Assembly (NCBI GenBank): GCA_964579435.1
Contig: CAZOGI010000010.1
Span: 23,583 to 87,582 of the forward strand
Direction of reading: 5' to 3'
From: an uncultured Planctomycetales bacterium
Lineage (GTDB): Bacteria > Omnitrophota > Gorgyraeia > Gygaellales > Profunditerraquicolaceae
Length of the DNA stretch: 64,000 nucleotides
The translations under genes and the position numbers were made by a program. Each line of letters starts with the position of its first letter. Within the stretch, counting starts at the first letter, position 1. The notes under the pieces were generated by a model. It ran no database searches. It had not been told where the DNA came from and saw only the letters and a program-made list of their open reading frames with translations. Shown here one piece after another: positions 12,976 through 64,000 of this stretch.

Positions 12976-12991
12976 AAGCGGGAGATCGCCG

Positions 12992-16528: not shown

Positions 16529-16532
16529 CACC

Positions 16533-44705: not shown

Positions 44706-46093
44706 CCGGACAAACAATCCTCCTGGTCAATCCCGGTCACCGCGAATGGGCGCGTGTGCTGCCGCTGGGCATCGCCTACGTTGCCGCTGCCGCCCGGAAA
44801 GCGGGATTCCCGGTGCGCACGATCGACGCAACCGCCGAACGACTTTCACCGCAGGCGCTGGCCCTGCGATTGAAAAAACTCAAACCTGCGGTCCTGGGGA
44901 TCACCGCGACCACGGTGCAGATCGCCTCTGCCTGGGAGATCGCCCGCCTGGCAAAAGAGCATGATCCCGGCTGCGTCACGGTGCTGGGAGGAGTCCACCC
45001 CAGCGCGCTGCCCGAGGAGAGCCTGGGACAGCCGTCTGTTGATTTCGTCTGCAGGGGAGAGGGAGAAGCAACTTTCGTTTCTTTACTCAGCGCCCTTTCC
45101 TCCCGCACTCACCCAGGGTCGGTCCAGGGGATATCCTTCCGCTCAAACGGCTCTGTCGTGCACACGCCGGACCGCCGGCTCGTTCCCGATCCGGACCTCT
45201 TCGCGTTTCCGGCGCGGGAGCTCTTTGACTTCCCCCGCCGGTACCAAAGCCCCCTTGCCCTGCGAAGAAGATGCGCGACGATCCTGACCAGCAGGGGCTG
45301 CCCGGGCACCTGCACCTTCTGCAACAAAAATATCTCCGGAAGCGTCTTTAGGCCGCGCAGCCCCGCCTCGGTCATCGAAGAGATGGAATCGCTCATCCGC
45401 ACCTTCGGCATCCAGGAATTCCATATTGCCGACGACTGTTTCAGCTGGGACATGCAGCGGGTCATGGACCTCTGCGCGCTGATGCGCAAACGCATCCCCG
45501 CCATCCGCTGGGCCTGCACCAACGGCATCCGCGTCGACCGCTCGACCAAACCGTTCTTTCGCGAAATGAAAGCCGCCGGCTGTTACCGCGTCTCCTTCGG
45601 CGTCGAATCGGGAGACGAGGCGCTGCTGAAGCGCATCGGCAAGAATATAGACCAGGAATCGATACGCAGGGCCGTCTCGCTTGCCCAAAGCGCAGGACTC
45701 GTCACCATCTGCTTTTTTATGCTCGGCAATCACGGCGAGACTGCCGCTCACGCTCAAAAAACCATCGAATTCGCCCGCTCTCTGCGCACCGATTACGCCC
45801 AGTTCACGCTGGCCATGCCCTATCCGGGAACCGCATTTTTCAGGCAGCTGGAGAAAGAAGGCCGGATCCGCAGCCGCGATTGGAGGAGGTATTCGGTGTA
45901 CGGGCCGGACATTCCCTACGAGCCGGCCGGGATGAGCGCAGAGGAATTGCTGGGCTTCTACAGACAGGCGTACCGCGCCTTTTATCTGCGGCCACGGCAG
46001 ATCGCCTTTCTCCTTTCCCGGCGGCTGCGCCTCGGCGCCGGCATCGGCAGCTTCGTACGCTCATCAGCGGAGGTCTTGCGCCGTGCCCGATAA
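44702..46093 (+). CDS. B12-binding-domain radical SAM enzyme (paralogue 3)
   Basis: Track ORF 44123 trimmed to ATG 44702 (ATGA overlap). TILLVNPGH..., LTSRGCPGTCTFC. Confidence 0.85.
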   Translation: MTGQTILLVNPGHREWARVLPLGIAYVAAAARKAGFPVRTIDATAERLSPQALALRLKKLKPAVLGITATTVQIASAWEIARLAKEHDPGCVTVLGGVHPSALPEESLGQPSVDFVCRGEGEATFVSLLSALSSRTHPGSVQGISFRSNGSVVHTPDRRLVPDPDLFAFPARELFDFPRRYQSPLALRRRCATILTSRGCPGTCTFCNKNISGSVFRPRSPASVIEEMESLIRTFGIQEFHIADDCFSWDMQRVMDLCALMRKRIPAIRWACTNGIRVDRSTKPFFREMKAAGCYRVSFGVESGDEALLKRIGKNIDQESIRRAVSLAQSAGLVTICFFMLGNHGETAAHAQKTIEFARSLRTDYAQFTLAMPYPGTAFFRQLEKEGRIRSRDWRRYSVYGPDIPYEPAGMSAEELLGFYRQAYRAFYLRPRQIAFLLSRRLRLGAGIGSFVRSSAEVLRRAR

Positions 46094-47799: not shown

Positions 47800-49704
47800 A
47801 TGCAAGGATACCCCATGACTGATCGCCGATTCAACCTTTTCATCAGCTTCGCCTGCCTGGCGCTCATCGCGCTCTCCTACGCCAACACTCTCAAGGCGGA
47901 TTTCCACTTCGACGATTTCGACAGCATCGTCAATGTCCCGGCGATCCGCAGCCTGACCAATTTCAAGGAGATATTCCGTCTCACCGAACGGCCGCTCGTC
48001 AACTACTCCTTCGCCGTCAACTACTTCTTCGGAAAACTCAACGTCACCGGATTCCATCTGGTCAATATCGGGCTCCACGCGCTCTGCACGCTGCTGGTCT
48101 TTTTCTTCCTGCGGGAATTGCTTGGCGTACCCCTGCTTAAGGAACGCTACAGCCAAAAGATTGGCCGGTGGCTCTCTGCGGGAAGCGCGTTTCTTTTTGC
48201 CGTCCATCCGGCCAGAGTGGAAGCGGTCACGTATATTACCGCCCGATCGGAGAGCATGGCGTCGGCTTTTTATCTGCTCTCCTGCCTTTGCTTCCTGAAA
48301 TCCCTCTCTGACATCAAGAGAGAGCGGCTCTTCCAAGCGGCGGCAATTGTAGCCAGCGCCATCGGCATGGCAACCAAGGAGATCGTCGCCACACTGCCGG
48401 CGTCCCTGCTGCTGCTCGATTATCTTTTTGTGTGCGCCGGGAATCCCGCCTGCCTGAAGAAACGCGCCCGGTTCCATGCCTCGATGTTCGCCACGATCGC
48501 CGTTACCGTTGCGCTGGTGCTCTATTCGGACAAATGGGGAGCAGCCGGACTGGGTAACCCGAACCTGCACACGCCCCTTCAACACGCCCTCAGTGGTTTG
48601 CGCGCGTACGTCTATTATCTGGCCCTTTTCATCTTTCCGGCACCCGGACGCCTTAACTTCGACACCGATTTTGCCCTCTCCCGCAGCTTCACCGAACCGC
48701 AGGTCCTCGGCGCAAGCCTCTTCATCGCCGCGGCACTTGTCTTGGCCCTGTACGAATCGCGCCGGTGCCCCTTGATCACCTTCGCGATCTTGTGGTATTT
48801 TCTCCTGCTTCTGCCGACCACCAGCTTCATTCCGATCGAAGACCTCGTCTATGAGCGCAGGATGTATCTGGCCGCGCTCGGGCCCGGGCTCATCACGCTC
48901 CTTGCCCTCGGGCCGCTTCCCCGACGCCTGCGCATCGGCATTCTGGCGCTGACAGTCGGGATCCTCTCCCTGTGGACCATCCAGCGCAACGCCATCTGGC
49001 GAACCGAATTCTCCCTCCTGAGCGATTCGCTCAAAAAATCTCCGTACAAAACCCGCACGCTTACGAATATGGGCATGTTTTACCTCACCAAACAACAGGA
49101 CTTAGCTGCTGCCCGCTCCTACCTTGCCAGGGCCTTGCACTACAACCCGGATGCGGCAAACAGCCTGCTGAATATGGGCGTGGTGCAGCTGTTGGAGAAC
49201 AATCTGTCCGGGGCAGAACAACTTTTCCGTAAATTGCTTTATCTCTTTCCGGACGCAACCGCCGGCTATGTCAACCTGGCGACCGTATACCGCCGCTCCG
49301 GCCGGCTCCGGGAAGCAGAAGAGCTTCTACGAACCGCAATCACCATCGAACCTTCCTTCGCGGAAGCGTACGGGAATCTGGGCGTTATTCTGGCAAGCAA
49401 AAGAGAATTTGAGGAAGCCGAAAAGGCGCTTATTAAATCAATCGCTCTGAATCCCGATCTGCCTGAGCCGCACCATAGCCTGGGGCTCATCTATCAGAAG
49501 AGGGGTGACCATAAAAACGCTATCACTCAATTCCAGAGAGCCGTCACTTTGCAGCCTCAATTTTCAAAGGCTCTTTACAGCATGGGCATCTCGTACCTGG
49601 CGCTTGGAGATAAAGAAAAAGCAGAGGAGACGTATGCGAAGCTCCTGAAAATCAATCTTGATCTGGCGCTAAACTTGTTGTCCAGGATTGAGTTAAGACT
49701 TTAG
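47800..49704 (+). CDS. TPR-repeat GT-C glycosyltransferase-like protein (TMTC/DUF1736-type)
   Basis: Track ORF 47749 trimmed to ATG 47800. TM1 then FHFDDFD, about 10 TM helices, and a C-terminal TPR array. Paralogue of 34685-37456. Confidence 0.7.
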   Translation: MQGYPMTDRRFNLFISFACLALIALSYANTLKADFHFDDFDSIVNVPAIRSLTNFKEIFRLTERPLVNYSFAVNYFFGKLNVTGFHLVNIGLHALCTLLVFFFLRELLGVPLLKERYSQKIGRWLSAGSAFLFAVHPARVEAVTYITARSESMASAFYLLSCLCFLKSLSDIKRERLFQAAAIVASAIGMATKEIVATLPASLLLLDYLFVCAGNPACLKKRARFHASMFATIAVTVALVLYSDKWGAAGLGNPNLHTPLQHALSGLRAYVYYLALFIFPAPGRLNFDTDFALSRSFTEPQVLGASLFIAAALVLALYESRRCPLITFAILWYFLLLLPTTSFIPIEDLVYERRMYLAALGPGLITLLALGPLPRRLRIGILALTVGILSLWTIQRNAIWRTEFSLLSDSLKKSPYKTRTLTNMGMFYLTKQQDLAAARSYLARALHYNPDAANSLLNMGVVQLLENNLSGAEQLFRKLLYLFPDATAGYVNLATVYRRSGRLREAEELLRTAITIEPSFAEAYGNLGVILASKREFEEAEKALIKSIALNPDLPEPHHSLGLIYQKRGDHKNAITQFQRAVTLQPQFSKALYSMGISYLALGDKEKAEETYAKLLKINLDLALNLLSRIELRL

Positions 49705-49810
49705 TGAGGAGTGAGGAGTTAGGAGTTTGGAGTTTGGAGCTATGCTTTTAGTTCGTATTTTCTCCCAACTCCTAACTCCCTACCCCCAACTCCCTACTCC
49801 CAACTCCCGA
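49705..49810. repeat. inverted arrays of heptanucleotide tandem repeats (long imperfect hairpin; possible terminator/insulator)
   Basis: Left arm: GAGGAGT GAGGAGT TAGGAGT TTGGAGT TTGGAGC. About a 20-nt AT-rich spacer. Right arm: CTCCCAA CTCCTAA CTCCCTA CCCCCAA CTCCCTA CTCCCAA CTCCCGA. The arms are largely complementary. Confidence 0.8.
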
Positions 49811-49910: not shown

Positions 49911-49938
49911 GTGACTCTTGAGAATAAAATAATATAAT
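49911..49938 (+). promoter_or_regulatory. candidate promoter GTGACT-16 nt-TATAAT, very short leader
   Basis: Sits in the AT-rich 245-nt intergenic region. -10 at 49933-49938, with ATG 49951 lying 12 nt downstream and no SD. Confidence 0.4.
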
Positions 49939-49950
49939 AATAGTTAAGCC

Positions 49951-52900
49951 ATGAAGAGCTTACCGACAAAGAAATTTTTCCGCACTTTTCTCATCCTGGG
50001 GATAACGACGCTCCTGTGCGCAACCCCGCATGCCCTTGCCGCAACCCGTTTCTATTTCGACGCCTCAACCGCAGCAGATGTCACTGCCTCCTATGACGCC
50101 GGCTGGGAATACCAATCCGAGGCAGGCCGCTACAAACTCAACAGGACCAAAGGCTCCTCCGCAATAACCATCGGCACCCAGATCGGCCCCTGGACCGCCG
50201 GCAGCGCCAACCAGGCCCTTGACCGCCAGTACATAAGCGATCCGATCGAAGCCCAGACCATAAGCGGCACGGTCAAAGGCCAGGTCATGTCGCGTGAATA
50301 CAACACCAGCGATAACGTGAACCGGATGTACATCACGGTCAAAGTCGTCTCCAACGACGGTTCCAGCGTGCGGGGGACACTCCTTGCCCTCAATACCTAT
50401 TACACGAATGCCGAACTGATCAGCAACGTAACCCACCGCAACGCCATCCTTGCCAATTCCGACACCGTCACCAACGTCACCGCGCAGCAGGGCGACCGCA
50501 TCCTCATCGAGATCGGCTTCGGCAGCTCGACAACCCAGACCACGCCCGAAGGCTCCTGCAAATGGGGGGAGAATGCATCCGACCTCCCGGAAAACGAAAC
50601 CCAAACAACCGACGGTGCGGGGTGGTTTGAGTTCTCCGCGGATATCACTTTCTATACTCCGCCCAAACCGCAATTCACCCAGAAAGCCTACCAGTGGGAG
50701 AATGACGATTCAACCTCAGGCGTCAACGCCAATTCACAGGCAGCCGAAGACAATACCGCCCTTACCGACGTGCGCATCGGACAGCGCCTCACCTGCAGGA
50801 TGCAGGTCGAGAACGACTCAACCGCCGCATCGAGCGACACCGTCTATCAGCTGCAGTGGGAGAACAACACCGATAACCCCGGGCGCTGGTTCCCGGTCGG
50901 CTACGGGACGCAGATCTCGTACGCAACCGGGCTCGCCGGCTTAAGCGGCGCCTCAACCGGCACCACCGCGCTCTGCGGAACCCCCACGTACACCATGGTC
51001 GCCGGCACCTGGCAGTCAGGGACGAGCCAGAACCCGCCCCACTCCATGGAGACGCAGCGAAGCGCGGAATTCTCTTTTGTCATCGACACCGCCAACGCAA
51101 AAGAAAATAAAGTCTATCGCCTGCGCCTCTTCGACAAAACAAACGCCCAGGCTTTCAATGCCTACACCGTCTATCCGCAGCTGACCACCGTCACCGCCGC
51201 CAACAACACCCTGCGCTACAGCAAAGAGCCACTCGATGCGGTGCAGAACACCTGGCGCATGGCCTCCTATCTGGACGAAACCGGCTATGACAACAGCGCC
51301 TCGGATAACTCGGTTTACGATTCGCTCCCCGCCCGGCGGCTTGCCCTTCGTGCGCAAGCCGACCTGACCTTTACCTCATTCGATGTTTCGCAATACCCGA
51401 CCTCGCAGATGGCCGTAGGCGTGGGAGACTTCAACAACGACGGCTACAACGACCTGCTCATGGGCGGCCAGCGCTACGCGACCTATGTCGGCCGGGCATA
51501 CCTTTATCTCGGCGGCAGCCCGATGGACAGCGTCTGTGACCTCACCATGCAGGCCGGTGCCCTCTACACCAATTCTTATTTCGGCTCCGCGGTCGCGGTC
51601 GGAGATATCAACAACGACAGTTTCGACGACGCCGTGGTCGGCAACTGGGGGTATTACCGTATGTACCTCTACTACGGCTCCACGACCATGAACAACGTCA
51701 TCGACATGACCTTTACCGGCGAAGCGACGAGCGACTACTACGGCTATTCGATCGGCATCAACGACGTCAACGGCGACAGCTTCAAGGATATCGTCACCAA
51801 CGCCCAGTGGTGGAATAACGGCCAGGGAAGACTCTACGTCTATTACGGCGGCACCACGATGAACAATGTTTGTGACCTGACGATAAACGGACAGGGAGGG
51901 GTGCACAACTATCCCGGGTTCGCCTGCGTCGTCGAAGACGTCAACAACGACAGTTTTGCCGACATACTCGTCAGCTCTCCCTACTACTACTATTCGGACA
52001 TGCGCGGCAGGGCATGGCTCTGGTACGGCGGAAACCCGATGGATGCCACCTGCGACAAGACCTTTACCGGAGAGACAACGGGCTCCTATTTCGGCGCTTC
52101 GGGATTATCGATCGGCGAAGTCAATAACGACGGCTTTAAGGACATCCTTATCGGAGCCTACGTCTACAGCTCCACGAAGGGCCGATCGTATCTTTTTTAT
52201 GGAGCGACCGGCACGAGCATGGATATAACCGCTGACAAAACCATCACCGGGAACGCGGGAGACTATCAGGGACAGGGAGAGCAGATCGTCGACGTCAATA
52301 ACGACGACTACGCTGACCTGGTCATCGGCGCCGATGCCTTCGGCAACAGCAGGGGAGTGGTCAAGATTTACTACGGCGGCGCCGACATGGACATCGTCGA
52401 AGACCTCAGCATCGCCACGGGCCAGACAGGCAACTATTTTTCCCAATCGGTCAATACGGGCGACCTGAACAACGACGGGGCCGCTGACCTGATCATCGGA
52501 GCCAACAGCTATCCGAGCCTCACCTACCAGGGCCGCGCCTGGGTTTATTACACCAAACCCCTCTTTGCCCCAACCCAGATCTTCGCCAAAAAGAACACCA
52601 ACAACACCGATTACATCGCCTTTGCCTGGAAAGGCAAAACCGACATGGCCGCAACTTCCGACAACATCATCGTCGAGGCTGCCCAGCAGACGGCGATGGA
52701 TGGCACTAACGACGAGACATTCACCGGAGAAGCGGGGAGCAATTTTTTCAGCAACTGTATCGCGCTTGCCGATTTCAACAACGACCATTACCAGGACCTG
52801 GTGCTGGGCGCCGACGGCTACAACAGCAACCAGGGCCGCGCCTATCTCTACTACGGCGGCACCGGCATAGTCGACACCGCCGCGGCACTTACGTTTAATT

Positions 52901-55900
52901 GTCCGGACACCGGCACCAATTATTTTGCGGGAGGCGGCTGGACCGTATCAACCGGGGACGTAAACGGGGACCTTTATGCCGACCTGCTCCTGGGGGCCGT
53001 CGGCTATAACACGAACATGGGCCGGGCTTTCCTGTACTTAAGCAAGCGCTTCGGCCTCATGGACGGCAGCCCTGACCTGACGCTCACCAGCCCGGCGACC
53101 GGCACAAACTCTTTCGGCAGGAACGCCGTCGGAGACGTCAACGGCGACGGTTTTGCCGATATGCTTATCGGTGCGCCCAGCTACGACACCAATAGGGGCC
53201 GGGTATACCTCTACTACGGCGCCTCAACTCCCGACGCCACTGCTGACCTGGTCCTCGCCGGCGAGACAACCGGAACCTATTTCGGCGACCGGATTGCGGT
53301 CAGTGACGTGAACGGCGATTATTTCTCGGACGTGCTGGTTATGGCTTATGCCTATGCCTCGACCCGCGGCAGGGCATACCTCTATTACGGCGGCACGACC
53401 ATGGATGCCACCTGTGACAAGACCTTTACCGGAGAAGCATCAAACACCAATTTCGGCCGCAGCGGCGGCATCGGCGATATCGATAACGACGGCTACGGCG
53501 ACGTCGTCATCGGGGCCAACCTGTACGCAACAAGCAGCGGCCGCGCCTATCTGTTCTGGGGCGCCACCAACATGGATGTCACCTGCGACAAAACCTTCAC
53601 CGGCGAAACAGCAAGCATACAGTTCGGCCAGGATGTCAGCATTTCCGACCTCAACGCCGACTCCTACGGGGATCTGGTCGTCACCGCCTACACCTGGAAC
53701 ACCAGCCAGGGCCGCGCCTATGTCTACAAAGGCGCCAGCCAGGCCTCCTTTGATACGACCTGTGACCTCACCTTAAGCGGCCTCACCACTACCGACAACT
53801 ACGGACGGGCCGCCCGCTCAGGCGATGTCAACAACGACGGATTCGCCGACCTGGTCGTCGGCGCCTACAATTACAACAGCGGACGCGGCCGGGCGTACCT
53901 CTATTACGGCGATACCGTCTCCTGGGTGACCCAGGCAACCGAAAGTTCCCTGGCAGCAGACACCCCCGGATGGATATACGCGTTCATCGATACCGACCCG
54001 AACCTCTATTACACGCCGGATAACTGGACGTATTGGCGGGTCTATCAGGCTCCGGGACAAGATACCAAAATTCTGGATATCGATTACGTGCAGTTCGACT
54101 TCCAGGCAACGGCGGTCAAGCTCATCTCTTTCTGGGCATTCGGCAAGGACGAAGAGGTCCAGGTCAGATGGGAAACCGCCTCTGAATCGCAGAACCTGGG
54201 CTTCAACCTCTACCGCTCGACATCCTCCGACGGAACTTACACCAAGATAAACGCAGGGATCATCTCCGGCCTCGGCAGCTCGCTGACCGGCAAAGAATAC
54301 TCCTTTACCGACGCCGATGTCTCAAACGGCCGCACCTACTACTACAAGCTGGAATCGATCGAGTTCACCGGCACCCGCGTCATGCACGGCCCCATCGAAG
54401 CGCATCCCGGGCTCGATGCCGACTCAGACGGCATGAGCGACGACTGGGAGGCGCATTACGGGCTCAACAGCGCTGACGCCTCGGACGCAGGGGCAGACCG
54501 CGACAGCGACGGACTGACGAATCTGCAGGAATACACCCTGGGCACCGACCCGACCCGCTCGGGCCAGGTAAGCGCAGGCGCAAGCGGCAGCGGCGGGCTC
54601 ACCGTCGTCTCCAGCGACTCAACCGGCATCACCCTGGAACTGCGCACCCCCGGGATCGAAAGCCGCACCGTCACCGTCAACAAACAAGCGTATCAATCCC
54701 TGAGCATCCCTGCCTATGCGCACGGCTATACGGCCATAAGCGCAAGCGCGCGCATGCCGGTCAAGCCGGTGATGCTTGCCCTGCCGCCCAATGCCGGCTG
54801 TTCCGTAGAAATCCTCAGCGAAGAGACGGAGATCTTCAGTAATTATACGGTAGAGCCGGTTACCACCTACACCCTGGAAGCGGATGCCAACGAAGAAGCG
54901 CTGCAATCGGGAGGCTTCGGCAAAACAGGACCGCTCGAGATAACGGTCGATCCGGCCGCGATCAACACCGTCTTCTATCAGCAGGACAGCAGCTATCCCG
55001 GGGAGCGCGCCGAGGTCGAATGGGTGGGAGATCTGCGCTCTCAGCGTATCGCCTGCCTGCGCCTGGCGCCGCTGCGCTTCAACCCGGCAAAGAAGGAGCT
55101 GACGATCTCCAAAGTCCTGCGCGTGCGGGTCACCTTTACCCAGGGAGGCGCTGCATCGGGAAACTGGCAGCTCTCCGAAACGGCCAAAAACGCGCGCATC
55201 AAGATCAAAACCGAAGGAGGCGGCATCCGCCGGCTTACCTGGACCGACCTGTATAACGCCGGCCTCACCGACGTGATCTGGTCCGACCCGCGACTCCTTT
55301 CCATGACCAACCTCGGCACGGAAATCGCTATCCGCGTCAAAGGCGAAGAGGACGGGATCTTCAATTTCGACGATTACGTGGAATTTTACGCCCGGGAAAT
55401 ACCGGCGCATTACGATGGATCGAGCCCCTACGCCGCGTATGCAAAATACTCTCCCCACAATGTTTACTTTTTGGGCTTTGGATCCTCCAACGGCAAACGC
55501 ATGGAGACGCGCGAAAGCAGCGCCAATGAAGGAAGCGTCTCGCCCGCGCGCTTCCGCCACACCGCCACCTTCGAGCAGAACGATTTTTACTGGAGCACCC
55601 GGGCGGGAGGGGAGCACGCAGACCGCTGGTTCTGGTCGCCTGCCCTCTGGGAAGACACGAGCCAGGAATACGCGCTGAACCTGCCCCATGTCGATGTCGA
55701 CAGCGCCGCCGAGACGGCAAGCGTCTCTTTGGTGTACTACCCGCTCCTGTACCTGCCGCAGCCCAGCGAAACCGCCAAAGCGACCGTCGCCCACGAAACA
55801 AGCGCAACCCTCAACGGCGTCTCCCTCGGCAGTGACACCTGGCAGGGCATGCAGGAACGCACCATCGAGGCGGAAATCGCACACGCCAGCCTTATTACCG

Positions 55901-57924
55901 GAAGCAACACCCTCAAGCTCGCGCACAAGAAAGTATCGCCTGCCGAGCACGACGCTCTTATCGCCAATTATTGCACGATCACCTACTGGCACACATTTGA
56001 GGCGGATTCGGACGCGCTCTCCTTCTCCTGCGCGAGCGAAACAGGGGACACCGCCGCATTCACGGTCACCGGCCTGACGACCCAGGAATGCTCTGCTTAC
56101 GATATTACCGATCCTGCCCAGCCGGTCGCCTTTTCCGGGCTCTCCGCGGTTTTCGACCCCGGAACCAACACCTACTGCGTTTCCTTCAAAGACGATATCC
56201 CGGCGGCGCAGGAGCGCCGTTATCTGGTGCTGGCCGACGCGCAAAAGACAGCCCCCGCGGCCCTTTCCTTCGTTGCCGCGCCGGCGCTTGACCTGAGCCT
56301 CGCCGGCAACCACGCCGATTACCTGATCATCACTCATTCCTCTTTTTCGGACGCCCTGGAGCCCCTCAAAAACCTGCACACCGCCCAGGCACTCGACGTG
56401 CAGATCATCGACATCGAAGATATCTATAACGCCTTCGCGTACGGGTTCCCGACGCCGCAGGCGGTCAAGGACTTCGTCAGCTACGCCTACGCGAACTGGA
56501 AAGGGCTCTGCCAAAAAACCTCGCCGCCCCGGGTCATGGCCCCGACGTACGTGCTCCTCGTCGGAGACGCCCACTACGATTACCGCGACAATCTCGGGAC
56601 CGGGCGCAGCATCTATGTGCCGACCTACCTCATTGCGGATCAACCCAATATCGGCGAGACCGCATCCGACAACTGGTTCGCCTGCATGGGGGGACAGGAG
56701 GATACCCTTGCGGATCTCTTTATCGGAAGGCTGCCGGTCAGGACAAACCAGGAGTGCCAGGCGGTAGTCTCCAAAACAATCGCCTACGCGGCACAGGAGG
56801 CCGGGGGAGCGTATACGCGGGCAACCTTCCTGGCCGATGTCGGCAGCGAATTCGAGCAGACCTGCGAGAGCCTCTCCGGCAAACTCTCCGCCGAAGTAAC
56901 CGGGCAAAAACTCTATTTGTCGGACTACCCCAGCGCCGCCTCGTTCGTCTCCGGACTCATCTCCTCCGTCAACAGCGGGACGCTCCTCTTGACCTATGTC
57001 GGCCACGCCGCAACCTATCTCTGGACCGCCGACGGCTCATTCGACACCGACTCCGTCGCCTCTCTGAACAACACCGCCGCCTTCCCGCTGGTCGTTTCCC
57101 TCGACTGCCTCGACGGCTACTTTATCAACCCCCAGGAACAGTACGAATCCCTCGCCGAGACCTTCCTGCGCAAATCCGGCTCCGGCGCCGTCGCCTGTTT
57201 CTCGCCCTCGGGCATGGGCATGCCGTCAAGCCATCTCATACTCGGCACCTATTTCTATAAAGCGCTCTTTGAGAGCGGCTCAACCCATCTGGGACAGGCG
57301 GCAACCGAAGCAAAACTCAATTATTTCGCCAGCACCGGCGCCGCCGGGCTGGACTTGGTGCATACCTATAACCTCTTGGGGGACCCGGCGCTCGCCCTGA
57401 AGATCCCGGCCGCTGCGTCCCAGACCGGCCAGACCGCCGTGACGACGACTGCCGCCGCGACAACTCAAACCGCAACAGAATCGGAATCCGCAACGACAAC
57501 GAGCGCGGAAACAGACGCCTTTACCTCGATCCTCGGCTCGGCGCTGGCCAACGTTGAAGAAGGCAAGAAATGGCGCGACGAAACCAAACAGGCCAAAGAC
57601 CCCCAGGACCCGGCAGAAACATCCGCGGAACCGCAGGGCGTCCTCGCGAAACTGCCGATCCCCAGGATCATCAAAGAGATCGTCAAGAAACAGAAGACGG
57701 CGCTGACGCAGCCAGCCGGCCAACCCGCGGCAACCGGTCTCACCCATGCGGATACCGCGCCGGAGGGAAGCGAATACGCTCAAGACGCAACAGTCCCGGA
57801 GCGTTCATCCGCCGTGCAGCAGAAATCCCCGCGCACGAATATCCTGCGCACCGTCATCGAAACAGTCTGGAAAGCTGTAGTCACCTTCTTCAAAAAACTC
57901 CTGGCCCTGATCCTGGGTAAATGA
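49951..57924 (+). CDS. giant secreted protein: 14 FG-GAP repeats (two predicted 7-bladed propellers) + TSP3-like acidic motif + peptidase C25 (gingipain-like) domain
   Basis: 2657 aa. Signal peptide ...LLCATPHALA. 14 D-x-N-x-D-x-x-x-D / GRAYLYYG units. DADSDGMSDDWE...DSDGLTNLQEYTLGTDP. C25-like ADYLIITH..., YVGHA (His codon 57004-57006), SLDCLDGYF (Cys codon 57106-57108). T/A/E-rich linker and a hydrophobic C-terminal tail. Confidence 0.9.
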   Translation: MKSLPTKKFFRTFLILGITTLLCATPHALAATRFYFDASTAADVTASYDAGWEYQSEAGRYKLNRTKGSSAITIGTQIGPWTAGSANQALDRQYISDPIEAQTISGTVKGQVMSREYNTSDNVNRMYITVKVVSNDGSSVRGTLLALNTYYTNAELISNVTHRNAILANSDTVTNVTAQQGDRILIEIGFGSSTTQTTPEGSCKWGENASDLPENETQTTDGAGWFEFSADITFYTPPKPQFTQKAYQWENDDSTSGVNANSQAAEDNTALTDVRIGQRLTCRMQVENDSTAASSDTVYQLQWENNTDNPGRWFPVGYGTQISYATGLAGLSGASTGTTALCGTPTYTMVAGTWQSGTSQNPPHSMETQRSAEFSFVIDTANAKENKVYRLRLFDKTNAQAFNAYTVYPQLTTVTAANNTLRYSKEPLDAVQNTWRMASYLDETGYDNSASDNSVYDSLPARRLALRAQADLTFTSFDVSQYPTSQMAVGVGDFNNDGYNDLLMGGQRYATYVGRAYLYLGGSPMDSVCDLTMQAGALYTNSYFGSAVAVGDINNDSFDDAVVGNWGYYRMYLYYGSTTMNNVIDMTFTGEATSDYYGYSIGINDVNGDSFKDIVTNAQWWNNGQGRLYVYYGGTTMNNVCDLTINGQGGVHNYPGFACVVEDVNNDSFADILVSSPYYYYSDMRGRAWLWYGGNPMDATCDKTFTGETTGSYFGASGLSIGEVNNDGFKDILIGAYVYSSTKGRSYLFYGATGTSMDITADKTITGNAGDYQGQGEQIVDVNNDDYADLVIGADAFGNSRGVVKIYYGGADMDIVEDLSIATGQTGNYFSQSVNTGDLNNDGAADLIIGANSYPSLTYQGRAWVYYTKPLFAPTQIFAKKNTNNTDYIAFAWKGKTDMAATSDNIIVEAAQQTAMDGTNDETFTGEAGSNFFSNCIALADFNNDHYQDLVLGADGYNSNQGRAYLYYGGTGIVDTAAALTFNCPDTGTNYFAGGGWTVSTGDVNGDLYADLLLGAVGYNTNMGRAFLYLSKRFGLMDGSPDLTLTSPATGTNSFGRNAVGDVNGDGFADMLIGAPSYDTNRGRVYLYYGASTPDATADLVLAGETTGTYFGDRIAVSDVNGDYFSDVLVMAYAYASTRGRAYLYYGGTTMDATCDKTFTGEASNTNFGRSGGIGDIDNDGYGDVVIGANLYATSSGRAYLFWGATNMDVTCDKTFTGETASIQFGQDVSISDLNADSYGDLVVTAYTWNTSQGRAYVYKGASQASFDTTCDLTLSGLTTTDNYGRAARSGDVNNDGFADLVVGAYNYNSGRGRAYLYYGDTVSWVTQATESSLAADTPGWIYAFIDTDPNLYYTPDNWTYWRVYQAPGQDTKILDIDYVQFDFQATAVKLISFWAFGKDEEVQVRWETASESQNLGFNLYRSTSSDGTYTKINAGIISGLGSSLTGKEYSFTDADVSNGRTYYYKLESIEFTGTRVMHGPIEAHPGLDADSDGMSDDWEAHYGLNSADASDAGADRDSDGLTNLQEYTLGTDPTRSGQVSAGASGSGGLTVVSSDSTGITLELRTPGIESRTVTVNKQAYQSLSIPAYAHGYTAISASARMPVKPVMLALPPNAGCSVEILSEETEIFSNYTVEPVTTYTLEADANEEALQSGGFGKTGPLEITVDPAAINTVFYQQDSSYPGERAEVEWVGDLRSQRIACLRLAPLRFNPAKKELTISKVLRVRVTFTQGGAASGNWQLSETAKNARIKIKTEGGGIRRLTWTDLYNAGLTDVIWSDPRLLSMTNLGTEIAIRVKGEEDGIFNFDDYVEFYAREIPAHYDGSSPYAAYAKYSPHNVYFLGFGSSNGKRMETRESSANEGSVSPARFRHTATFEQNDFYWSTRAGGEHADRWFWSPALWEDTSQEYALNLPHVDVDSAAETASVSLVYYPLLYLPQPSETAKATVAHETSATLNGVSLGSDTWQGMQERTIEAEIAHASLITGSNTLKLAHKKVSPAEHDALIANYCTITYWHTFEADSDALSFSCASETGDTAAFTVTGLTTQECSAYDITDPAQPVAFSGLSAVFDPGTNTYCVSFKDDIPAAQERRYLVLADAQKTAPAALSFVAAPALDLSLAGNHADYLIITHSSFSDALEPLKNLHTAQALDVQIIDIEDIYNAFAYGFPTPQAVKDFVSYAYANWKGLCQKTSPPRVMAPTYVLLVGDAHYDYRDNLGTGRSIYVPTYLIADQPNIGETASDNWFACMGGQEDTLADLFIGRLPVRTNQECQAVVSKTIAYAAQEAGGAYTRATFLADVGSEFEQTCESLSGKLSAEVTGQKLYLSDYPSAASFVSGLISSVNSGTLLLTYVGHAATYLWTADGSFDTDSVASLNNTAAFPLVVSLDCLDGYFINPQEQYESLAETFLRKSGSGAVACFSPSGMGMPSSHLILGTYFYKALFESGSTHLGQAATEAKLNYFASTGAAGLDLVHTYNLLGDPALALKIPAAASQTGQTAVTTTAAATTQTATESESATTTSAETDAFTSILGSALANVEEGKKWRDETKQAKDPQDPAETSAEPQGVLAKLPIPRIIKEIVKKQKTALTQPAGQPAATGLTHADTAPEGSEYAQDATVPERSSAVQQKSPRTNILRTVIETVWKAVVTFFKKLLALILGK

Positions 57925-58745
57925 CAACCCGTCTTTTTTGCATCGAAATAGCCGATTATCCCTTCGGCATAGAAGCGCCCGAACCCCTCTGGGGCGCATT
58001 TCAGGAAACCTATCTGCCGTTCCTGAGCGCCCGGGAGCCGCGCTACCGCATCCGCGCCGAGATCGACCCCACCGCGCAACCCGTTGACCTCTGGGAGGGG
58101 ATGACCCTGGATAAGACGACGCTCTCGATCAGCGATGACACCTCGAGTGCGCGTTTCGATTTCAAGACAAAAGAAGGGACGATCCGCCTGAACCCCGCCA
58201 GACTCCTGGTGCCGTTGGGCGCCTTCCTGCGCAATATCGTCACTGTGCTCTTGAGCCTCCAGGATGACGGCCTCCTGATGCATGCCTGCGGGGTCCTGTA
58301 CGAAGAGGAAGCATTCCTCTTCACCGGGCGTTCCGGCGCCGGAAAAACGACGGTATCGCGCGCGCTCGCCCATTTGCCGACGATCTCCGACGATCTTTTG
58401 CTGGTCAAGCCCACCCCCGGAGGATTCGGCGTCTGGCCGCACCCGCGCTGGGGAGACCGCCAGAGCGGATCATTCCAAAACCGGCCGCACCGGATCAGCA
58501 GTATTTACCTCTTGTGCCAGGATACCGGGGTTTTCGTGAAAAGGCTCGGCCCGGCCCGGGCCACCGCGCACCTCTTGACCGTTCCGCACGTCCCCGTCAA
58601 CCGCATCCCCGCCGCGCGCATCCTGGAAAGCACCCAACGCCTGGCGGAGACGGTCCCGGTGTACGAACTGCACTTCCGGCCCGACCCGTCGTTCTGGGAA
58701 AAGATACTGCAGGAGAGAGAAAGGATTGTCGCTGCATGGAAATGA
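57921..58745 (+). CDS. HPr kinase-related (HprK-like) P-loop kinase
   Basis: 274 aa. ATGA overlap with the giant gene stop. MHACGVLYEEEAFLFTGRSGAGKTTVSRAL...ISDD aligns with the HprK C-terminal catalytic core. Confidence 0.7.
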   Translation: MTTRLFCIEIADYPFGIEAPEPLWGAFQETYLPFLSAREPRYRIRAEIDPTAQPVDLWEGMTLDKTTLSISDDTSSARFDFKTKEGTIRLNPARLLVPLGAFLRNIVTVLLSLQDDGLLMHACGVLYEEEAFLFTGRSGAGKTTVSRALAHLPTISDDLLLVKPTPGGFGVWPHPRWGDRQSGSFQNRPHRISSIYLLCQDTGVFVKRLGPARATAHLLTVPHVPVNRIPAARILESTQRLAETVPVYELHFRPDPSFWEKILQERERIVAAWK

Positions 58746-59017
58746 AATCAGCAATCCCGTTCAAGAACGAGAAGACCGCTTCCCGCATCATCCAGGACCA
58801 GGCCGTGATCGTCATCCTGGAAAACCAGGAGACGGTGGTCCTCAACGAGAGCGCCTCGCGCATCTGGGAACTAAGCGACGGGAAACGCACGCTCGGGGAA
58901 ATCGCCCGCATACTGGAAGAGGAATTTTCGGTATCCGCGCAAACCGCCCTGCAGGACGCCGCCGCCTTCCTGGGCGAAGCGGAAGGCAAGGGGATCTTTT
59001 CACTCAACCGCCCATGA
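58742..59017 (+). CDS. PqqD-family protein (stand-alone RiPP recognition element-like)
   Basis: Track ORF 58514 trimmed to ATG 58742 (ATGA overlap); ATG 58736 is an alternative. VVLNESASRIWELSDGKRTLGEIARILEEEFSV...AAFLGEAEGKGIF. Confidence 0.75.
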   Translation: MKSAIPFKNEKTASRIIQDQAVIVILENQETVVLNESASRIWELSDGKRTLGEIARILEEEFSVSAQTALQDAAAFLGEAEGKGIFSLNRP

Positions 59018-60036
59018 CCCCGACCGGCTTCACCGATATCTTTGCGCACAGCATGCGGCAGAACCTCTGCCTGATCGCGCACCTGGAGCTCACCCACGCC
59101 TGCAACCTGCGCTGCCGGCACTGTTACTGCGTCCCCGACGCGGACCGGCCGGAGTGCTCGTTCGGGGAAATCCGCTCGGTCCTGCGGCAGCTCAAAGAAG
59201 CGGGAACGCTCTTTTTGTGCCTCAGCGGAGGCGAACTGCTCTGCAGAGCGGACATCTTCGAGATACTCTCCTGCGCGCGCGCCGAAGGGTTCGCCCTGCG
59301 CCTGATGACCAACGGCACGCTCATCGACGAAACGGCAGCCGCGCGCATCGCAGCCGCAGCCGCGGTTACGGTCGACATGAGCATCTACGCGGCAAATCCC
59401 CGGCTGCACGACGCGGTGACGGGAAAACCCGGATCGTTGCACCTGACCCTGCAGGCAGCAGCGCTCCTGAGGGAACGGGGGATACGCGTCGTGTTCAAGT
59501 TCATCGTCATGAAAGACACCGTCGGGGAATTCAAAAACATCCGCGCGCTCTGCCAAGAGAGAGGGATCGATTTCATCTACGACGTCTGCCTGGTCGAGCG
59601 CACCGACGGCGACGCCCGGCCGCTGCAGTACCGCCTGGACAAAGAAGGAATCAAATCGTTCCTGCGCCGGAACGCGCTGTCTCCCGCGGCATCGCCCGAC
59701 GGGTCGGTTTTGTGCACCGCCGGACTCAACAACATCTTCATCTCTCCGCAGCTGGACGTCTATCCCTGCATCGGCATCCGTGAAAAGATCGGCTCCCTGC
59801 GCCAAGGTTCCCTGAAGGACATCTGGGAATCCGCGCCGCTGCTGCGGAGGCTGCGCACCCTCACCGATGCCGAACTGAACGCCTGCTCTTCCTGCGCGAA
59901 GCGCGCCTACTGCTTCCGCTGCGCCGGCCTGGCGCTGGAAGCGTCAAACGACCTCTGCGCCCGCTCGCCGTTCGACTGCGAAGTTGCCCAGGCGCTCGCG
60001 GAAACCGCACAAAGAGAAAAGGAGACCGTCCTATGA
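59014..60036 (+). CDS. radical SAM enzyme with C-terminal SPASM domain (peptide-maturase type)
   Basis: Track ORF 58726 trimmed to ATG 59014 (ATGA overlap). LELTHACNLRCRHCY. C-terminal Cys array CTAG...YPC...CSSCAKRAYCFRCAG...C...C. Confidence 0.85.
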   Translation: MTPTGFTDIFAHSMRQNLCLIAHLELTHACNLRCRHCYCVPDADRPECSFGEIRSVLRQLKEAGTLFLCLSGGELLCRADIFEILSCARAEGFALRLMTNGTLIDETAAARIAAAAAVTVDMSIYAANPRLHDAVTGKPGSLHLTLQAAALLRERGIRVVFKFIVMKDTVGEFKNIRALCQERGIDFIYDVCLVERTDGDARPLQYRLDKEGIKSFLRRNALSPAASPDGSVLCTAGLNNIFISPQLDVYPCIGIREKIGSLRQGSLKDIWESAPLLRRLRTLTDAELNACSSCAKRAYCFRCAGLALEASNDLCARSPFDCEVAQALAETAQREKETVL

Positions 60037-60194
60037 ACAAGAAAAATCAACCCGCCGCGAAACGACCGTACACCAAACCCGCTATCGCCTTCAGCAAAAA
60101 GATCGAGATCATCTCCGCGGTATGCGATTCCGGCTTCGGCGGACTGAGCAACTGCCGCAAATCATCGACGCCCTGCCTGCGTTCCCGGGCCTAA
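60033..60194 (+). CDS. 53-aa candidate precursor peptide (not in the supplied ORF track)
   Basis: ATG 60033 overlaps the rSAM stop (ATGA), with GGAG 8 nt upstream. Translation: MNKKNQPAAKRPYTKPAIAFSKKIEIISAVCDSGFGGLSNCRKSSTPCLRSRA. GC3-rich codons. Three Cys and several Ser/Thr lie in the C-terminal 23 residues. Confidence 0.55.
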   Translation: MNKKNQPAAKRPYTKPAIAFSKKIEIISAVCDSGFGGLSNCRKSSTPCLRSRA

Positions 60195-60207
60195 GCTCAG
60201 GCGTACC

Positions 60208-61824
60208 GTGGACCGTTCAGACCCCGAGACCGTCTCGCTCTCGCTGGTACGCGACAGCCTCAATGTCCGCGGCGGGACGATCACCCTCACGATCGCCGGA
60301 TCCTGCATGTCGCCGCTGATCCGGGCAGGAGACCGCGTCACCATACGATCGGTTTCTTTCGCTGAACTCACTCCCGGCGACATAATCGCCTTCCAGGACC
60401 GCAACCTGCTCTACGCGCACCGCCTGACCGGCAAAGATCCCCGCACGCAGAATCTGCACACCCAGGCGGACCGGTCATGGCAGACGGACATCGCGTTCTC
60501 CTTTTCCCAGGTGTTGGGAAAAGTGACCGCCGTCTCGAAACAGGGCAGGACCCTGCATCTTGACCGCTTCCCCGGCCGGCAGATCAACCGTGCCTATGGC
60601 GCCTGCCGCCGCCTGCTTCAGGCGATCACGCTCCCCGCGCGAGCGGCGCATGAGGCCCTGCGCCGGAGGCAGGGGACAGAGGAGCGGCAAGCACTCTTTG
60701 CGGTTGTCTCTGTCGCCAGCCGCGGCTTTCTGGAGACCCCGTTCCCGCTGCCGGAGCGCATCGATGAGCCCCTCTTTGGGGAACAGGCGCGCGCCCAAAC
60801 ACTGGCACCCTGGTGCTTTTGCGTACTGCGCGATCGGCAGCGCGACCACGATGTTTTTTCTCCCACTCTGCGCGAAACGCTCAGGCTCGAATATTACGAA
60901 ACCTTTTCCCTGAATGCCCAATCCCTCCCCGGGACACAGGAACTCTTCGCTCACCTGCGCGCCCAGGAGATCGGATTCCTCGTCTTCAAAGGCCTGGTGC
61001 TGGCCCAGGGCGTCTATGCGGATATCGGAGCGCGCCGCCTGGGAGACACCGATATCCTCATCAGAAGGGAGGACCTCTCCCGTCTCGACCGGGTCCTGCG
61101 CGAGAGAGGCTTTCGTTGTCCGGTTCCCCTCACGGCAGTCCCGGAGGCGCCCAACGCGTACCGCAATGCGCTGCTGTATTTGCCTCCCGACGGATCCCTG
61201 CAGAGACCGCTGCATGTGTACTGGCACTGGGTCAATCTCGCCGCGTTTTCCCGGCGCCTCCCCGGGTCGATACGGATGGAACGGATCTGGCAGGACCGCA
61301 TCAAGGTCGACATCGCCGGCATCTGCCTGGAGACGTTCTCCTGGGAACATCACCTCATCTACCTGTCCATGCACGCGCTCGCCCATTCCTATTTCCCGCT
61401 CAGCACCCTTATCGACATCGCCGGGCTGCTGACGAAACGCCGAAAAGACCTCGAGTGGAACGGCATCCTCAAAGACGCCCAGACCTTCGGCCTGGAGCGG
61501 CCGCTCTTGCTTGCCCTCACCCTGGCCCGGGAGATCTGCTCCGCCCCGGTTCCCGCCGCGGCGTTAAGCCGGCTACGGCCAACCCGCCTGAGCTTATTCG
61601 AAAGACGCTTCATCGCAGACGCGCAGCGGTTACGGCTGAAAACGGGAAAAGAGTGGCTCCTTTACCTGGGCATGAACGACACGCCGCTTGAGCGCCTCGA
61701 TTTTATCCTCCGCGCGCTTTTTCCGCCCGCGCACCTTCTTGCCCTCATCCGCCAGCAGCCGCGCGCCGCCCTCGCCGCATCGTACGGGAAACGCCTGGTC
61801 GCGGCAATGCGCAGCGCCTCCTAA
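60208..61824 (+). CDS. fusion protein: S26B (SipW/Sec11)-like signal-peptidase domain + NTP_transf_5-type nucleotidyltransferase
   Basis: 538 aa with GTG start. N-terminal IAGSCMSPLIRAGDRV...GDIIAF...YAHRL...ADRSWQTD...LGKVTAV follows the ER-type SPase pattern. Central KGLVLAQGVYADIGARRLGDTDILIRREDL nucleotidyltransferase motif. Confidence 0.7.
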   Translation: MDRSDPETVSLSLVRDSLNVRGGTITLTIAGSCMSPLIRAGDRVTIRSVSFAELTPGDIIAFQDRNLLYAHRLTGKDPRTQNLHTQADRSWQTDIAFSFSQVLGKVTAVSKQGRTLHLDRFPGRQINRAYGACRRLLQAITLPARAAHEALRRRQGTEERQALFAVVSVASRGFLETPFPLPERIDEPLFGEQARAQTLAPWCFCVLRDRQRDHDVFSPTLRETLRLEYYETFSLNAQSLPGTQELFAHLRAQEIGFLVFKGLVLAQGVYADIGARRLGDTDILIRREDLSRLDRVLRERGFRCPVPLTAVPEAPNAYRNALLYLPPDGSLQRPLHVYWHWVNLAAFSRRLPGSIRMERIWQDRIKVDIAGICLETFSWEHHLIYLSMHALAHSYFPLSTLIDIAGLLTKRRKDLEWNGILKDAQTFGLERPLLLALTLAREICSAPVPAAALSRLRPTRLSLFERRFIADAQRLRLKTGKEWLLYLGMNDTPLERLDFILRALFPPAHLLALIRQQPRAALAASYGKRLVAAMRSAS

Positions 61825-61859
61825 CCCAACTCCTTCAGCGACTGGGAATTAAAAAAATC

Positions 61860-61888
61860 TTGCCCGATCGGATGAATTGTGTTAGAGT
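61860..61888 (+). promoter_or_regulatory. sigma70-like promoter TTGCCC-17 nt-TAGAGT
   Basis: -35 at 61860-61865 and -10 at 61883-61888. The downstream gene has an AAGAGGGG SD 4 nt before ATG 61915. Confidence 0.4.
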
Positions 61889-61914
61889 ATTAAAAATATA
61901 GGTAAGAGGGGACA

Positions 61915-63852: not shown

Positions 63853-64000
63853 ATGTCCGGCATGAACTCGTTTTGCACCCCAGGGCCACAGCGCCTTTTT
63901 TTTTCGCCCCGCGATGCTTTTGCGCAAAAGAGAGCGCAGGCAAGCCTTGCCCTCGTTTTTTCCCTCATCGCCCTCGCGCTCATCCTGCCGGTCGGCCTCC
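63853..64000 (+). CDS. 5-prime fragment of a downstream ORF (truncated by the window edge)
   Basis: ATG 63853 is open to the window end (49 codons). MSGMNSFCTPGPQRLFFSPRDAF...LVFSLIALALILPVGL suggests an N-terminal TM helix. Function unknown. Confidence 0.3.
   Translation, partial: MSGMNSFCTPGPQRLFFSPRDAFAQKRAQASLALVFSLIALALILPVGL

Follow-up and report, generated by a model that had tools for sequence, protein, structure and literature searches.

A giant protein gene overlaps a peptide-modification cassette

The 64000-nucleotide stretch of contig CAZOGI010000010.1 that we analysed (hereafter the window) is occupied mainly by genes for polysaccharide synthesis. At 49951-57924 it encodes a 2657-residue multidomain protein, here called the giant, in which FG-GAP repeats are followed by a peptidase module of family C25. 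Directly downstream lie genes for an HprK-like kinase, a PqqD-family recognition element for peptides that are made by ribosomes and modified post-translationally (RiPPs), a radical SAM/SPASM enzyme, a 53-residue precursor peptide, and a signal-peptidase-I-like domain fused to a nucleotidyltransferase. This cassette is an LPP-like (LPP, linear polyphosphorylated peptide), radical-SAM-containing peptide system, a variant tied to giants with C25 modules related to PorU. The giant itself is a new member of two known kinds, C25 and FG-GAP.

The giant's stop codon (TGA, 57922-57924) overlaps the kinase start (ATG, 57921-57923) in the ATGA at 57921-57924, as an earlier note made from this DNA alone had read it. 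This is the first of four successive ATGA overlaps (giant/kinase, kinase/PqqD, PqqD/radical SAM and radical SAM/precursor). Together with an identical gene order in the closest relative, L011 (43% identity), the overlaps suggest that giant and cassette would be co-expressed as one unit.

The pairing of giant and cassette recurs in unrelated loci

Related loci were collected in two ways. Selection by the kinase gave about nine distinct loci, with homologues 25-37% identical to the window kinase; a scan of genome contigs with the kinase alignment yielded two loci, its matches being dominated by the generic Walker A pattern. Selection by the peptidase, starting from a four-sequence C25 alignment, gave 80 metagenome loci, which we scanned with custom hidden Markov models (HMMs). 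Near-duplicates occur among these (L021-23, L029/30, L055/63 and L086/89), leaving about 22 distinct positives.

The cassette adjoins a C25 or FG-GAP giant in six of the roughly nine distinct kinase-selected loci. L001 and L004 encode C25 giants of 2900 and 3017 aa directly upstream of genes for PqqD, radical SAM enzyme, peptide, kinase and S24-like peptidase, with gaps of 4-14 nt. L005 and L008 have a 1900-residue giant of FG-GAP/PQQ type at the same place (2736-8438 in L005). The genes are interleaved in L006 and L007, from Chloroflexia and Anaerolineales metagenome-assembled genomes (MAGs), where kinase, precursor, a 1051-residue C25 protein, PqqD, a membrane-anchored GFNLYR protein and a second C25 protein follow one another; these two loci have no radical SAM gene, and their precursors have no Cys. 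One kinase-selected locus holds the kinase alone.

The C25-selected loci gave a matching picture from the other side. Kinase, PqqD or S24-like genes are present in 28 of the 80, a share that stands at 14 of 30 where at least 5 kb of downstream flank is available and at 5 of 7 where at least 8 kb upstream and at least 5 kb downstream are. A kinase of the PF27840 type was recovered in 14 of the 80. The gap between the C25 gene and the nearest cassette gene is mostly below 150 nt, and the C25 partners nearly always open with a signal peptide or signal anchor. All-versus-all clustering of the open reading frames (ORFs) in 33 positive loci returned C25, PqqD, S24/NTP_transf_5, kinase and radical SAM as the only recurring families. 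Nine cassette-positive loci (L006, L007, L035, L037, L052, L055, L059, L069 and L077) encode two paralogous C25 proteins.

The earlier note had allowed that the adjacency might be coincidental; since the cassette recurs beside C25 or FG-GAP giants in unrelated loci, it is not, and we take the partnership to be real. Judged from these gene neighbourhoods, the pairing is frequent and spans phyla, and it is not obligatory. It suggests a previously undescribed link between such peptides and cell-surface proteins. In the window giant the two partner types, separate elsewhere, are united in one chain. The features of the locus are collected in Table 1.

Table 1. Features of the giant gene and the adjoining cassette, in window coordinates.
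Feature	Position	Strand	Basis
Promoter-like site, GTGACT-16 nt-TATAAT, 13 nt upstream of the giant's ATG	49911-49938	+	Consensus, 10/12 matches
Giant ORF, predicted secreted multidomain FG-GAP/C25 protein, 2657 aa	49951-57924	+	ATG start, translation without internal stop
Predicted Sec signal peptide, residues 1-30, MKSLPTKKFFRTFLILGITTLLCATPHALA followed by AT, A-L-A at 28-30	49951-50040	+	Sequence
Predicted N-terminal jelly-roll beta-sandwich, residues 31-255	50041-50715	+	AlphaFold, pLDDT >90
Second N-terminal region, residues 256-470	50716-51360	+	AlphaFold, pLDDT <50, poor alignment coverage
FG-GAP units 1-7, Ca loops at residues 493-838	51391-52599	+	Pfam and motif scan
~45-residue insert separating units 7 and 8, residues ~884-928	52600-52734	+	Unit spacing
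FG-GAP units 8-14, Ca loops at residues 941-1292	52735-53970	+	Pfam and motif scan
Beta-sandwich W-E-T...GFNLYR...YYYKLE, residues ~1384-1485	54100-54405	+	blastp against homologues
Two TSP3-like acidic, putatively Ca-binding DxDxDG motifs, DADSDGMSDDWE at 1489 and DRDSDGLTNLQEY at 1516	54415-54540	+	Motif scan
Propeptide_C25-like module, residues 1551-1732	54601-55146	+	Pfam PF08126
PorU-like module, residues ~1750-2490; His2352 codon 57004-57006, Cys2386 codon 57106-57108	55198-57420	+	HMMs, alignment to PDB structures
T/A/K/E-rich linker and C-terminal amphipathic helix (last ~25 residues)	57421-57921	+	Composition, hydrophobic moment
HprK-like kinase, Pfam PF27840 'ScmC', 274 aa	57921-58745	+	HMM, profile search
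PqqD-family RiPP recognition element, 93 aa, overlapping the kinase stop	58736-59017	+	TIGR03859, E=1.7e-11
Radical SAM/SPASM enzyme, 340 aa from MTPTGF, ATGA overlap with PqqD	59014-60036	+	Pfam Radical_SAM, SPASM
Precursor peptide, 53 aa, MNKKNQPAAKRPYTKPAIAFSKKIEIISAVCDSGFGGLSNCRKSSTPCLRSRA, ATGA overlap with the radical SAM stop, GGAG ribosome-binding site upstream	60033-60194	+	ORF below default list length
Signal-peptidase-I-like (S24/S26B) domain fused to NTP_transf_5 nucleotidyltransferase, 538 aa	60208-61824	+	HMMs
Wzz/GNVR and tyrosine autokinase (Wzc-like chain-length regulator)	61915-63846	+	HMMs; last gene before terminator-like sites

The giant carries a C25 peptidase module of the PorU branch

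A Pfam scan of the giant returned FG-GAP, FG-GAP_3, Propeptide_C25 and Peptidase_C25, three of the families among those for which the earlier note had proposed HMM annotation being thus represented. Peptidase_C25 (PF01364) covers residues 2124-2483 with 262.2 bits against a cut-off of 23 (E=1.2e-77, profile positions 1-374 of 374), and the YVGHA and SLDCLDG motifs that the note had assigned to a C25 catalytic domain lie within it. In alignments, their His2352 and Cys2386 coincide with a His and a Cys of PorU (6za2) and RgpB (1cvr and 4ief), established in RgpB as the catalytic residues; the pair thus falls on the gingipain dyad, as proposed, and on that of PorU. The equivalents of both residues are invariant in seven cassette-linked C25 modules. 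By alignment, the catalytic dyad is intact.

Similarity to solved structures is higher for PorU (E=7e-15) than for RgpB (E=1e-4). The NCBIfam model for PorU, NF033707, aligns residues 1790-2503 with profile positions 63-753 at 273.1 bits against a cut-off of 420, and the PorU2 model gives 208.8 bits against 450. Because the module is closer to PorU than to RgpB yet stays below the PorU cut-off, we assign it, on sequence grounds, to the PorU branch of C25 and not to the PorU equivalog. The earlier description of the peptidase as gingipain-like is corrected accordingly to PorU-like. The giant was also considered as PorU proper or as cargo of the type IX secretion system (T9SS); both were rejected on the sub-threshold score and the lack of T9SS context, no T9SS component being found among the about 50 annotated ORFs of the window.

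PorU, the C25 sortase of the T9SS, is the best solved-structure match, and the window module follows its profile over 690 of 1095 positions, past the catalytic domain. PorU and, by prediction, the window module are also both secreted and located at the surface. The C-terminal part of PorU (profile 754-1095) finds no match in the giant, and models of the T9SS C-terminal domain (CTD) match neither the tail nor the sandwich sub-sequence. Unlike PorU, the window module ends a giant FG-GAP protein, has a gingipain-type prodomain and is linked to a peptide-modification operon. The gingipains RgpB and Kgp share with the giant above-threshold matches to Peptidase_C25 and Propeptide_C25, and the dyad aligns with the RgpB motifs YTGHG and ACVNG; direct similarity to RgpB is weak (E~1e-4), however, and the giant lacks gingipain-type haemagglutinin/adhesin domains.

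The propeptide-like module suggested earlier was matched by Propeptide_C25 (PF08126) with 63.6 bits against a cut-off of 22 (E=1.8e-17 for the whole protein, 5.3e-19 for the sub-sequence). Upstream of it, the predicted beta-sandwich with W-x-T and GFNLYR motifs was located at residues ~1384-1485, followed by acidic motifs of the type described earlier. The TSP3-like character of these motifs is backed by matches of residues ~1480-1543 to highly repeated TSP3-type proteins, although the Pfam TSP3_bac model remains sub-threshold (E=0.005).

In blastp comparisons, homologues carry the GFNLYR sandwich (~1384-1497) together with the PorU-like module (~1750-2484); in P0005, P0006 and P0009-P0019 the sandwich immediately precedes the C25 module. 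This supermodule forms the C-terminal end of many giants whose N-terminal parts differ (CLIPPER, SdrD_B, SpaA and others). In L006 and L007 the sandwich is also encoded by itself, in small proteins that have a membrane helix at either end.

The final 168 residues of the window giant are rich in T, A, K and E. The last ~25 have a hydrophobic moment of ~0.57 and a mean Kyte-Doolittle value of 1.4, which marks them as amphipathic rather than transmembrane. The linker and the hydrophobic tail of the earlier description are thus present, with the correction that the tail is an amphipathic helix. Anchoring through PEP-CTERM, LPXTG or a T9SS CTD was rejected, as that description had anticipated, since neither a motif nor a model match was found. 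The giants of L001, L004 and L011 end right after a GDPAL motif, so we regard the window giant's tail as an add-on.

Other C25 partners have ends of other kinds. In L083 (~12500-12800), L027 (~6400-6897), L020 (~7500-7627) and L026 (~12300-12490), the chain goes on past the C25 module with another GFNLYR-like sandwich, then a run of Gly and a GCFI motif; where the ORF continues, in L083 and L027, these are followed by a membrane helix and a cluster of Arg/Lys, the arrangement of a C-terminal sorting signal. A motif at the extreme C terminus, (N)LIFLPLI(V/M)x or (I/Y)(F/Y)LPLVT(K/R), is common to other partners, with examples in L029 (12740-12772), L017 (~2980-3016), L007 (~14870-14904), L059 (~2780-2813) and L077 (~2800-2828). 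A further sorting signal may lie in these LPLI/LPLVT-type ends, one perhaps characteristic of Chloroflexota. No Pfam or NCBIfam model covers the sandwich, the window giant's tail or the sorting-signal-like tails of its relatives.

Fourteen FG-GAP units and a jelly-roll precede the peptidase

The Pfam model FG-GAP (PF01839) matches the giant in 13 stretches with 261.5 bits (E=1.3e-79), and a motif scan counts 14 Ca-binding loops, the number first reported, at residues 493, 552, 605, 663, 723, 781 and 838 and, further on, 941, 1003, 1062, 1119, 1176, 1233 and 1292. Unit spacing is 53-62 residues and rises to 103 after unit 7, in keeping with the insertion of about 50 residues noted there before; we estimate it at ~45.

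Two seven-bladed propellers are the simplest plausible reading of this region, because the insert falls exactly after unit 7 and because ~460 columns, about half of the low-confidence FG-GAP model, align in Foldseek with seven-bladed integrin alpha propellers (E~1e-11, TM 0.5), a match that we take as no more than a hint. In the AlphaFold model of residues 471-1340, built from an eight-row alignment and of low confidence, the mean predicted local distance difference test score (pLDDT) is 52.6 and the predicted TM-score 0.43; the insert stands at pLDDT ~21-29, and units 8-14 are modelled better, at 70-80 in places. Comparison of each unit i with unit i+7 revealed no pattern and hence no signal of duplication of a seven-unit block. 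The two propellers proposed earlier therefore agree with the insert position and the fold match, while closure of each ring is unproven.

Like integrin alpha-type propellers, the giant has FG-GAP repeats with DxNxDxxxD Ca-binding loops, and its best fold matches are the seven-bladed integrin alpha headpieces. It is 31-33% identical over the repeat region to the bacterial FG-GAP giants P0002-P0004. It differs from proteins of both kinds in carrying fourteen units per chain together with a C25 module. The exact protein is a singleton in a collection of 5.8 billion proteins, and blastp against the retrieved proteins found no other homologue that joins FG-GAP repeats to the C25 supermodule. In a search of 1.84 billion representatives, in which repeat scores dominated, the query alone spans the junction of FG-GAP and sandwich among the matches listed.

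At the N terminus, the AxA-type signal peptide recognized earlier was borne out by A-L-A at residues 28-30 and by homologues, whose conserved domain begins at residue 31, directly past it; it is also the protein's most hydrophobic 19-residue window. Two beta-rich regions of unknown type had been placed next. The first can now be typed as a predicted jelly-roll (residues 31-255), which Foldseek pairs with the jelly-roll at the C terminus of CocE/NonD hydrolases (E~2e-6) and, at lower significance, with Cry4Ba (E~9e-4). It has no match in Pfam or NCBIfam and belongs to a widespread family, with 201 homologues of up to 65% identity, nearly all without a recorded Pfam domain; family members are mostly 240-760 aa long, and their sources are metagenomes of soil and sediment, Terriglobales, Syntrophales and Planctomycetes. 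The second (residues 256-470) is still untyped, with no family match in Pfam or NCBIfam.

The cassette resembles LPP systems and adds a radical SAM enzyme

The PF27840-family kinase profile matches structures of PEPCK and HPr kinase, and the Walker A motif G136-x-S138-G139-x-G141-K142-x-T144 (GRSGAGKT) and D157 are invariant in the alignment. Structure matches of the PqqD protein include the PqqD family protein 9x8z and the lasso protein TbiB1. The radical SAM enzyme reaches no NCBIfam equivalog. A basic leader, (K/R)xYxKPx(L/I/V), in which Y13 and P16 do not vary, is common to 15 precursors taken from independent loci. The cores have three Cys wherever a radical SAM gene is present, mostly with a Gly-Ser end, and none in L006 and L007, which lack the gene. 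The L011 precursor is 47% identical to that of the window; the precursors match no NCBIfam or Pfam model. With a radical SAM/SPASM maturase, a RiPP recognition element (RRE) and a Cys-containing core, the cassette shows features of the sactipeptide/ranthipeptide type.

In the fusion protein, the nucleotidyltransferase part matches NTP_transf_5 (PF14907, E=5e-40). The peptidase part (60208-60630) stays below cut-off with both Peptidase_S24 (E=7.7e-4; 0.0091 for the whole protein) and TIGR02228 (E=4.4e-6), a model that the L001 homologue passes (54.4 vs 51.85). We aligned the window domain with 19 homologous ORFs from other loci. The candidate residues are Cys33 (codon 60304-60306), His71 and Asp88, of which His and Asp are conserved. 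At the nucleophile position the window has Cys, in GSCMSP where the pattern is GxSMxP; Ser stands there in 18 of the 20 aligned sequences and in LppS (S29). The L013 ORF at 3383-3883 is the one other with Cys at this position.

LPP systems (Popov et al., Nat Commun 2026, PMC13381572) use an SpI-like peptidase, an RRE and an HprK-like kinase to polyphosphorylate a serine and remove the leader; their clusters sit in capsule loci and are described as Bacillota-restricted, with a biological role stated to be unknown. The window cassette shares with them a separate RRE, a kinase resembling HprK, a YxxPx(L/V/I) leader, Y-x-x-P-x-(L/I/V) being the RRE-binding motif of lasso and LPP leaders (PMC13381572), and a location inside polysaccharide loci. 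It differs in several respects. LPP clusters were described from Bacillota, whereas related loci occur here in Chloroflexota and Myxococcota MAGs. The window adds a radical SAM/SPASM enzyme and a three-Cys core. The MsbA-like exporter of LPP core clusters is missing from the window cassette (57921-63846). The LPP leader peptidase, of the archaeal signal-peptidase-I-like type, has a Ser/His/Asp triad, whereas in the window the peptidase is joined to a nucleotidyltransferase and Cys replaces the nucleophile Ser. Only the YxxPx(L/I/V) part of the LPP leader motif YxxPxVLxHQxIxFETxxS is kept here, the remainder being absent.

Neither C25 nor radical SAM is mentioned in the LPP paper (PMC13381572), and the term PF14907 is absent from it too; the uncharacterised NTP transferase of LPP clusters (LppN/PsmN type) may be a counterpart of the window's PF14907 domain. 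The tailoring enzymes of paeninodin and pseudomycoidin also count among the closest known systems. In the pseudomycoidin pathway PsmK is the kinase that phosphorylates a C-terminal Ser, whose phosphate then receives a hexose through PsmN (PMC6993621). The SynChlorMet cassette (TIGR04248-04251; ScmC, ScmD and ScmE/F) likewise combines an HprK-related protein, a PqqD relative and a radical SAM/SPASM enzyme, but model scores for the window proteins are far lower than required (ScmC 23.8 vs 125, ScmD 17.5 vs 100, ScmE 99-100 vs 400 and ScmF 73-74 vs 400). We found no literature on SynChlorMet or on the combination of radical SAM, PqqD and HPr kinase, and a full-text search found no publication linking peptidase C25 to RiPPs.

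A proposed extracytoplasmic partner for the peptide

On balance, we favour the explanation that the giant is a Sec-exported surface or matrix protein and the extracytoplasmic member of the peptide system encoded in the same operon, with its C25 module acting outside the cytoplasm on or with the peptide. The PqqD recognition protein would bind the YxxPx(L/I/V) leader of the 53-residue precursor. Going by characterised homologues, the HprK-like kinase would phosphorylate the precursor, the radical SAM/SPASM enzyme would cross-link it at its three Cys, probably by thioether formation, and the signal-peptidase-like domain would remove the leader. The fused nucleotidyltransferase may decorate the phosphate, possibly by glycosylation. 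The peptide would then be exported and met by the C25 module. The fourteen Ca-binding FG-GAP blades could make the giant an adhesin or scaffold, and the jelly-roll sandwich may bind glycans.

For the C25 module itself we favour a PorU-type, sortase-like role, in which cleavage and transfer would fix the peptide or the giant to a surface polymer; simple proteolysis would be the next choice. Four points argue for this: the module is closer to PorU than to the gingipains, the leader already has its own peptidase, the system lies in a polysaccharide locus, and related C25 giants carry sorting-signal-like tails (motif, membrane helix and basic cluster).

Several observations weigh against the proposed partnership or parts of it. 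The cassette of L009 adjoins a giant of another kind, without C25 (2033 aa; F5/8 type C, LTD and CotH; 10942-17043). Cassettes with NTP_transf_5 have no giant within 10 kb in L002 and L003, a Myxococcota exopolysaccharide locus, or in L010. About half of the C25 loci with enough flank (16 of 30) are without the cassette. No peptide exporter is encoded in the window, and no transporter recurs across the 33 positive loci. The cassette's own leader peptidase makes C25 unnecessary for leader removal. The PorU score below cut-off and the window's lack of T9SS genes tell against a PorU-like function, and closure of 7+7 propellers draws no support from AlphaFold confidence or from the i/i+7 comparison.

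Four rival explanations were ranked, from maturation protease through co-location without interaction and inhibition to the giant as substrate. The first, which we judge unlikely though the best placed of the four, makes C25 a plain maturation protease that trims the exported, modified peptide in a second step of leader or follower removal and so frees its active form. RiPP pathways commonly employ a dedicated extracellular protease, and the intact dyad and zymogen-like prodomain fit such an enzyme, as do L006, L073 and L086, where PqqD and C25 occur and no S24-like peptidase was detected. Most loci, however, encode an SpI-like leader peptidase, whose counterpart in LPP systems has been shown to carry out this step; for a leader peptidase, a PorU-like module of 750 residues on a surface protein of 1000-3000 residues would be extravagant, and no exporter is conserved.

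Co-location without interaction is less likely still. Giants and cassette would both be accessory cargo of exopolysaccharide or biofilm loci, with C25 acting on host or matrix proteins or on its own prodomain. This would account for a window that is a polysaccharide locus as a whole, for the cassettes that stand alone or beside another type of giant, for the cassette-free C25 loci, and for Bacillota LPP clusters that sit in capsule loci without a C25 protein (PMC13381572). It sits poorly with adjacency that is immediate (0-150 nt, often overlapping) and is kept in L001, L004 and L005 without nearby polysaccharide genes, with the interleaved order in Chloroflexota, with pairing that holds at kinase identities of just 25-37%, and with a rare kinase family that turned up in 14 of 80 loci for which C25 was the sole criterion of choice.

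That the modified peptide serves specifically to inhibit or regulate the C25 peptidase encoded beside it, keeping it inactive until needed as in cysteine-protease/inhibitor gene pairs, we consider very unlikely. A small peptide, predicted to be cross-linked, is tightly coupled genetically to a cysteine peptidase, and several RiPP classes are protease inhibitors; but the module has its own Propeptide_C25, the cassette also pairs with giants that lack a peptidase (L005 and L009), and the core peptides vary widely, with and without Cys.

The earlier note's further suggestion that the giant might itself be a substrate, here taken to be that of the kinase and radical SAM enzymes, is scarcely credible despite the gene overlap and LPP precursors of up to 200 residues (PMC13381572), because a separate 53-residue precursor with an RRE-binding leader is encoded and is conserved in every locus type, and the giant opens with a Sec signal rather than a leader, while its relatives end right after C25 and share no tail usable as a core peptide.

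To return to the favoured partnership, its most specific form would make the C25 module the sortase of a T9SS-independent, peptide-mediated surface attachment; we hold this fuller scheme to be improbable as it stands. The cassette would yield a cross-linked, phosphorylated peptide tagged with a glycosyl phosphate, which would serve as linker or acceptor amine. The C25 module would cleave a C-terminal signal, for which the linker and amphipathic helix of the window giant or the GCFI motif, membrane helix and basic tail of relatives are candidates, and would transfer the giant adhesin or the peptide onto exopolysaccharide. PorU attaches cargo to anionic lipopolysaccharide. Attachment independent of the T9SS would, if true, parallel this and give the LPP-type peptides of capsule loci their missing role.

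LPP peptides and phosphorylated lasso peptides have been described only recently, in capsule loci, and what they do is stated to be unknown (PMC13381572). Outside Bacteroidota, C25 peptidases are frequent in metagenome giants and have no assigned role. The window suggests that LPP-like cassettes and PorU-like C25 giants may belong together; the two recur side by side in MAGs of Chloroflexota and in numerous taxonomically unassigned metagenome loci, and LPP-like machinery is now seen in MAGs outside Bacillota. The window also offers a testable idea on how the matrix is assembled, with the peptide serving a cysteine peptidase or sortase at the surface as substrate, linker or regulator, and defines a compact gene set for heterologous reconstitution.

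Transcription signals and surroundings of the operon

Three promoter-like sites occur in the region, against 5.0 expected in shuffles; one of them lies just upstream of the giant (Table 1). No convincing terminator was seen from the giant gene until after 63846. Terminator-like matches in total do not exceed shuffled expectation, and the better candidates stand after 63846, at 63882-63951. A weak terminator-like hairpin (57914-57931, + strand) spans the giant/kinase overlap, with a 5 bp stem and an 8-nt loop followed by TCTTTTTTGC; it could attenuate read-through. Directly after the stop of a tetratricopeptide repeat (TPR) gene and upstream of the giant's promoter-like site, at 49703-49805, lies a long imperfect hairpin with 37-nt arms, 76% complementary and built of 7-nt repeats (GGAGTKW and its complement), possibly a terminator or a repeat element.

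The polysaccharide genes of the window comprise nucleotide-sugar enzymes, glycosyltransferases, Wzy, AsnB and a priming transferase, and among them are large TPR proteins and three B12-radical SAM genes. The latter are consecutive, with overlapping calls (41869-43308, 42774-44705 and 44123-46093), and lie upstream of the giant; a DUF6895 gene (40774-41757, minus strand) stands beside them. Directly after the Wzy-like polymerase gene, 32483-34717 encodes a 744-aa protein with a spermine/spermidine synthase domain, unusual for a polysaccharide locus.

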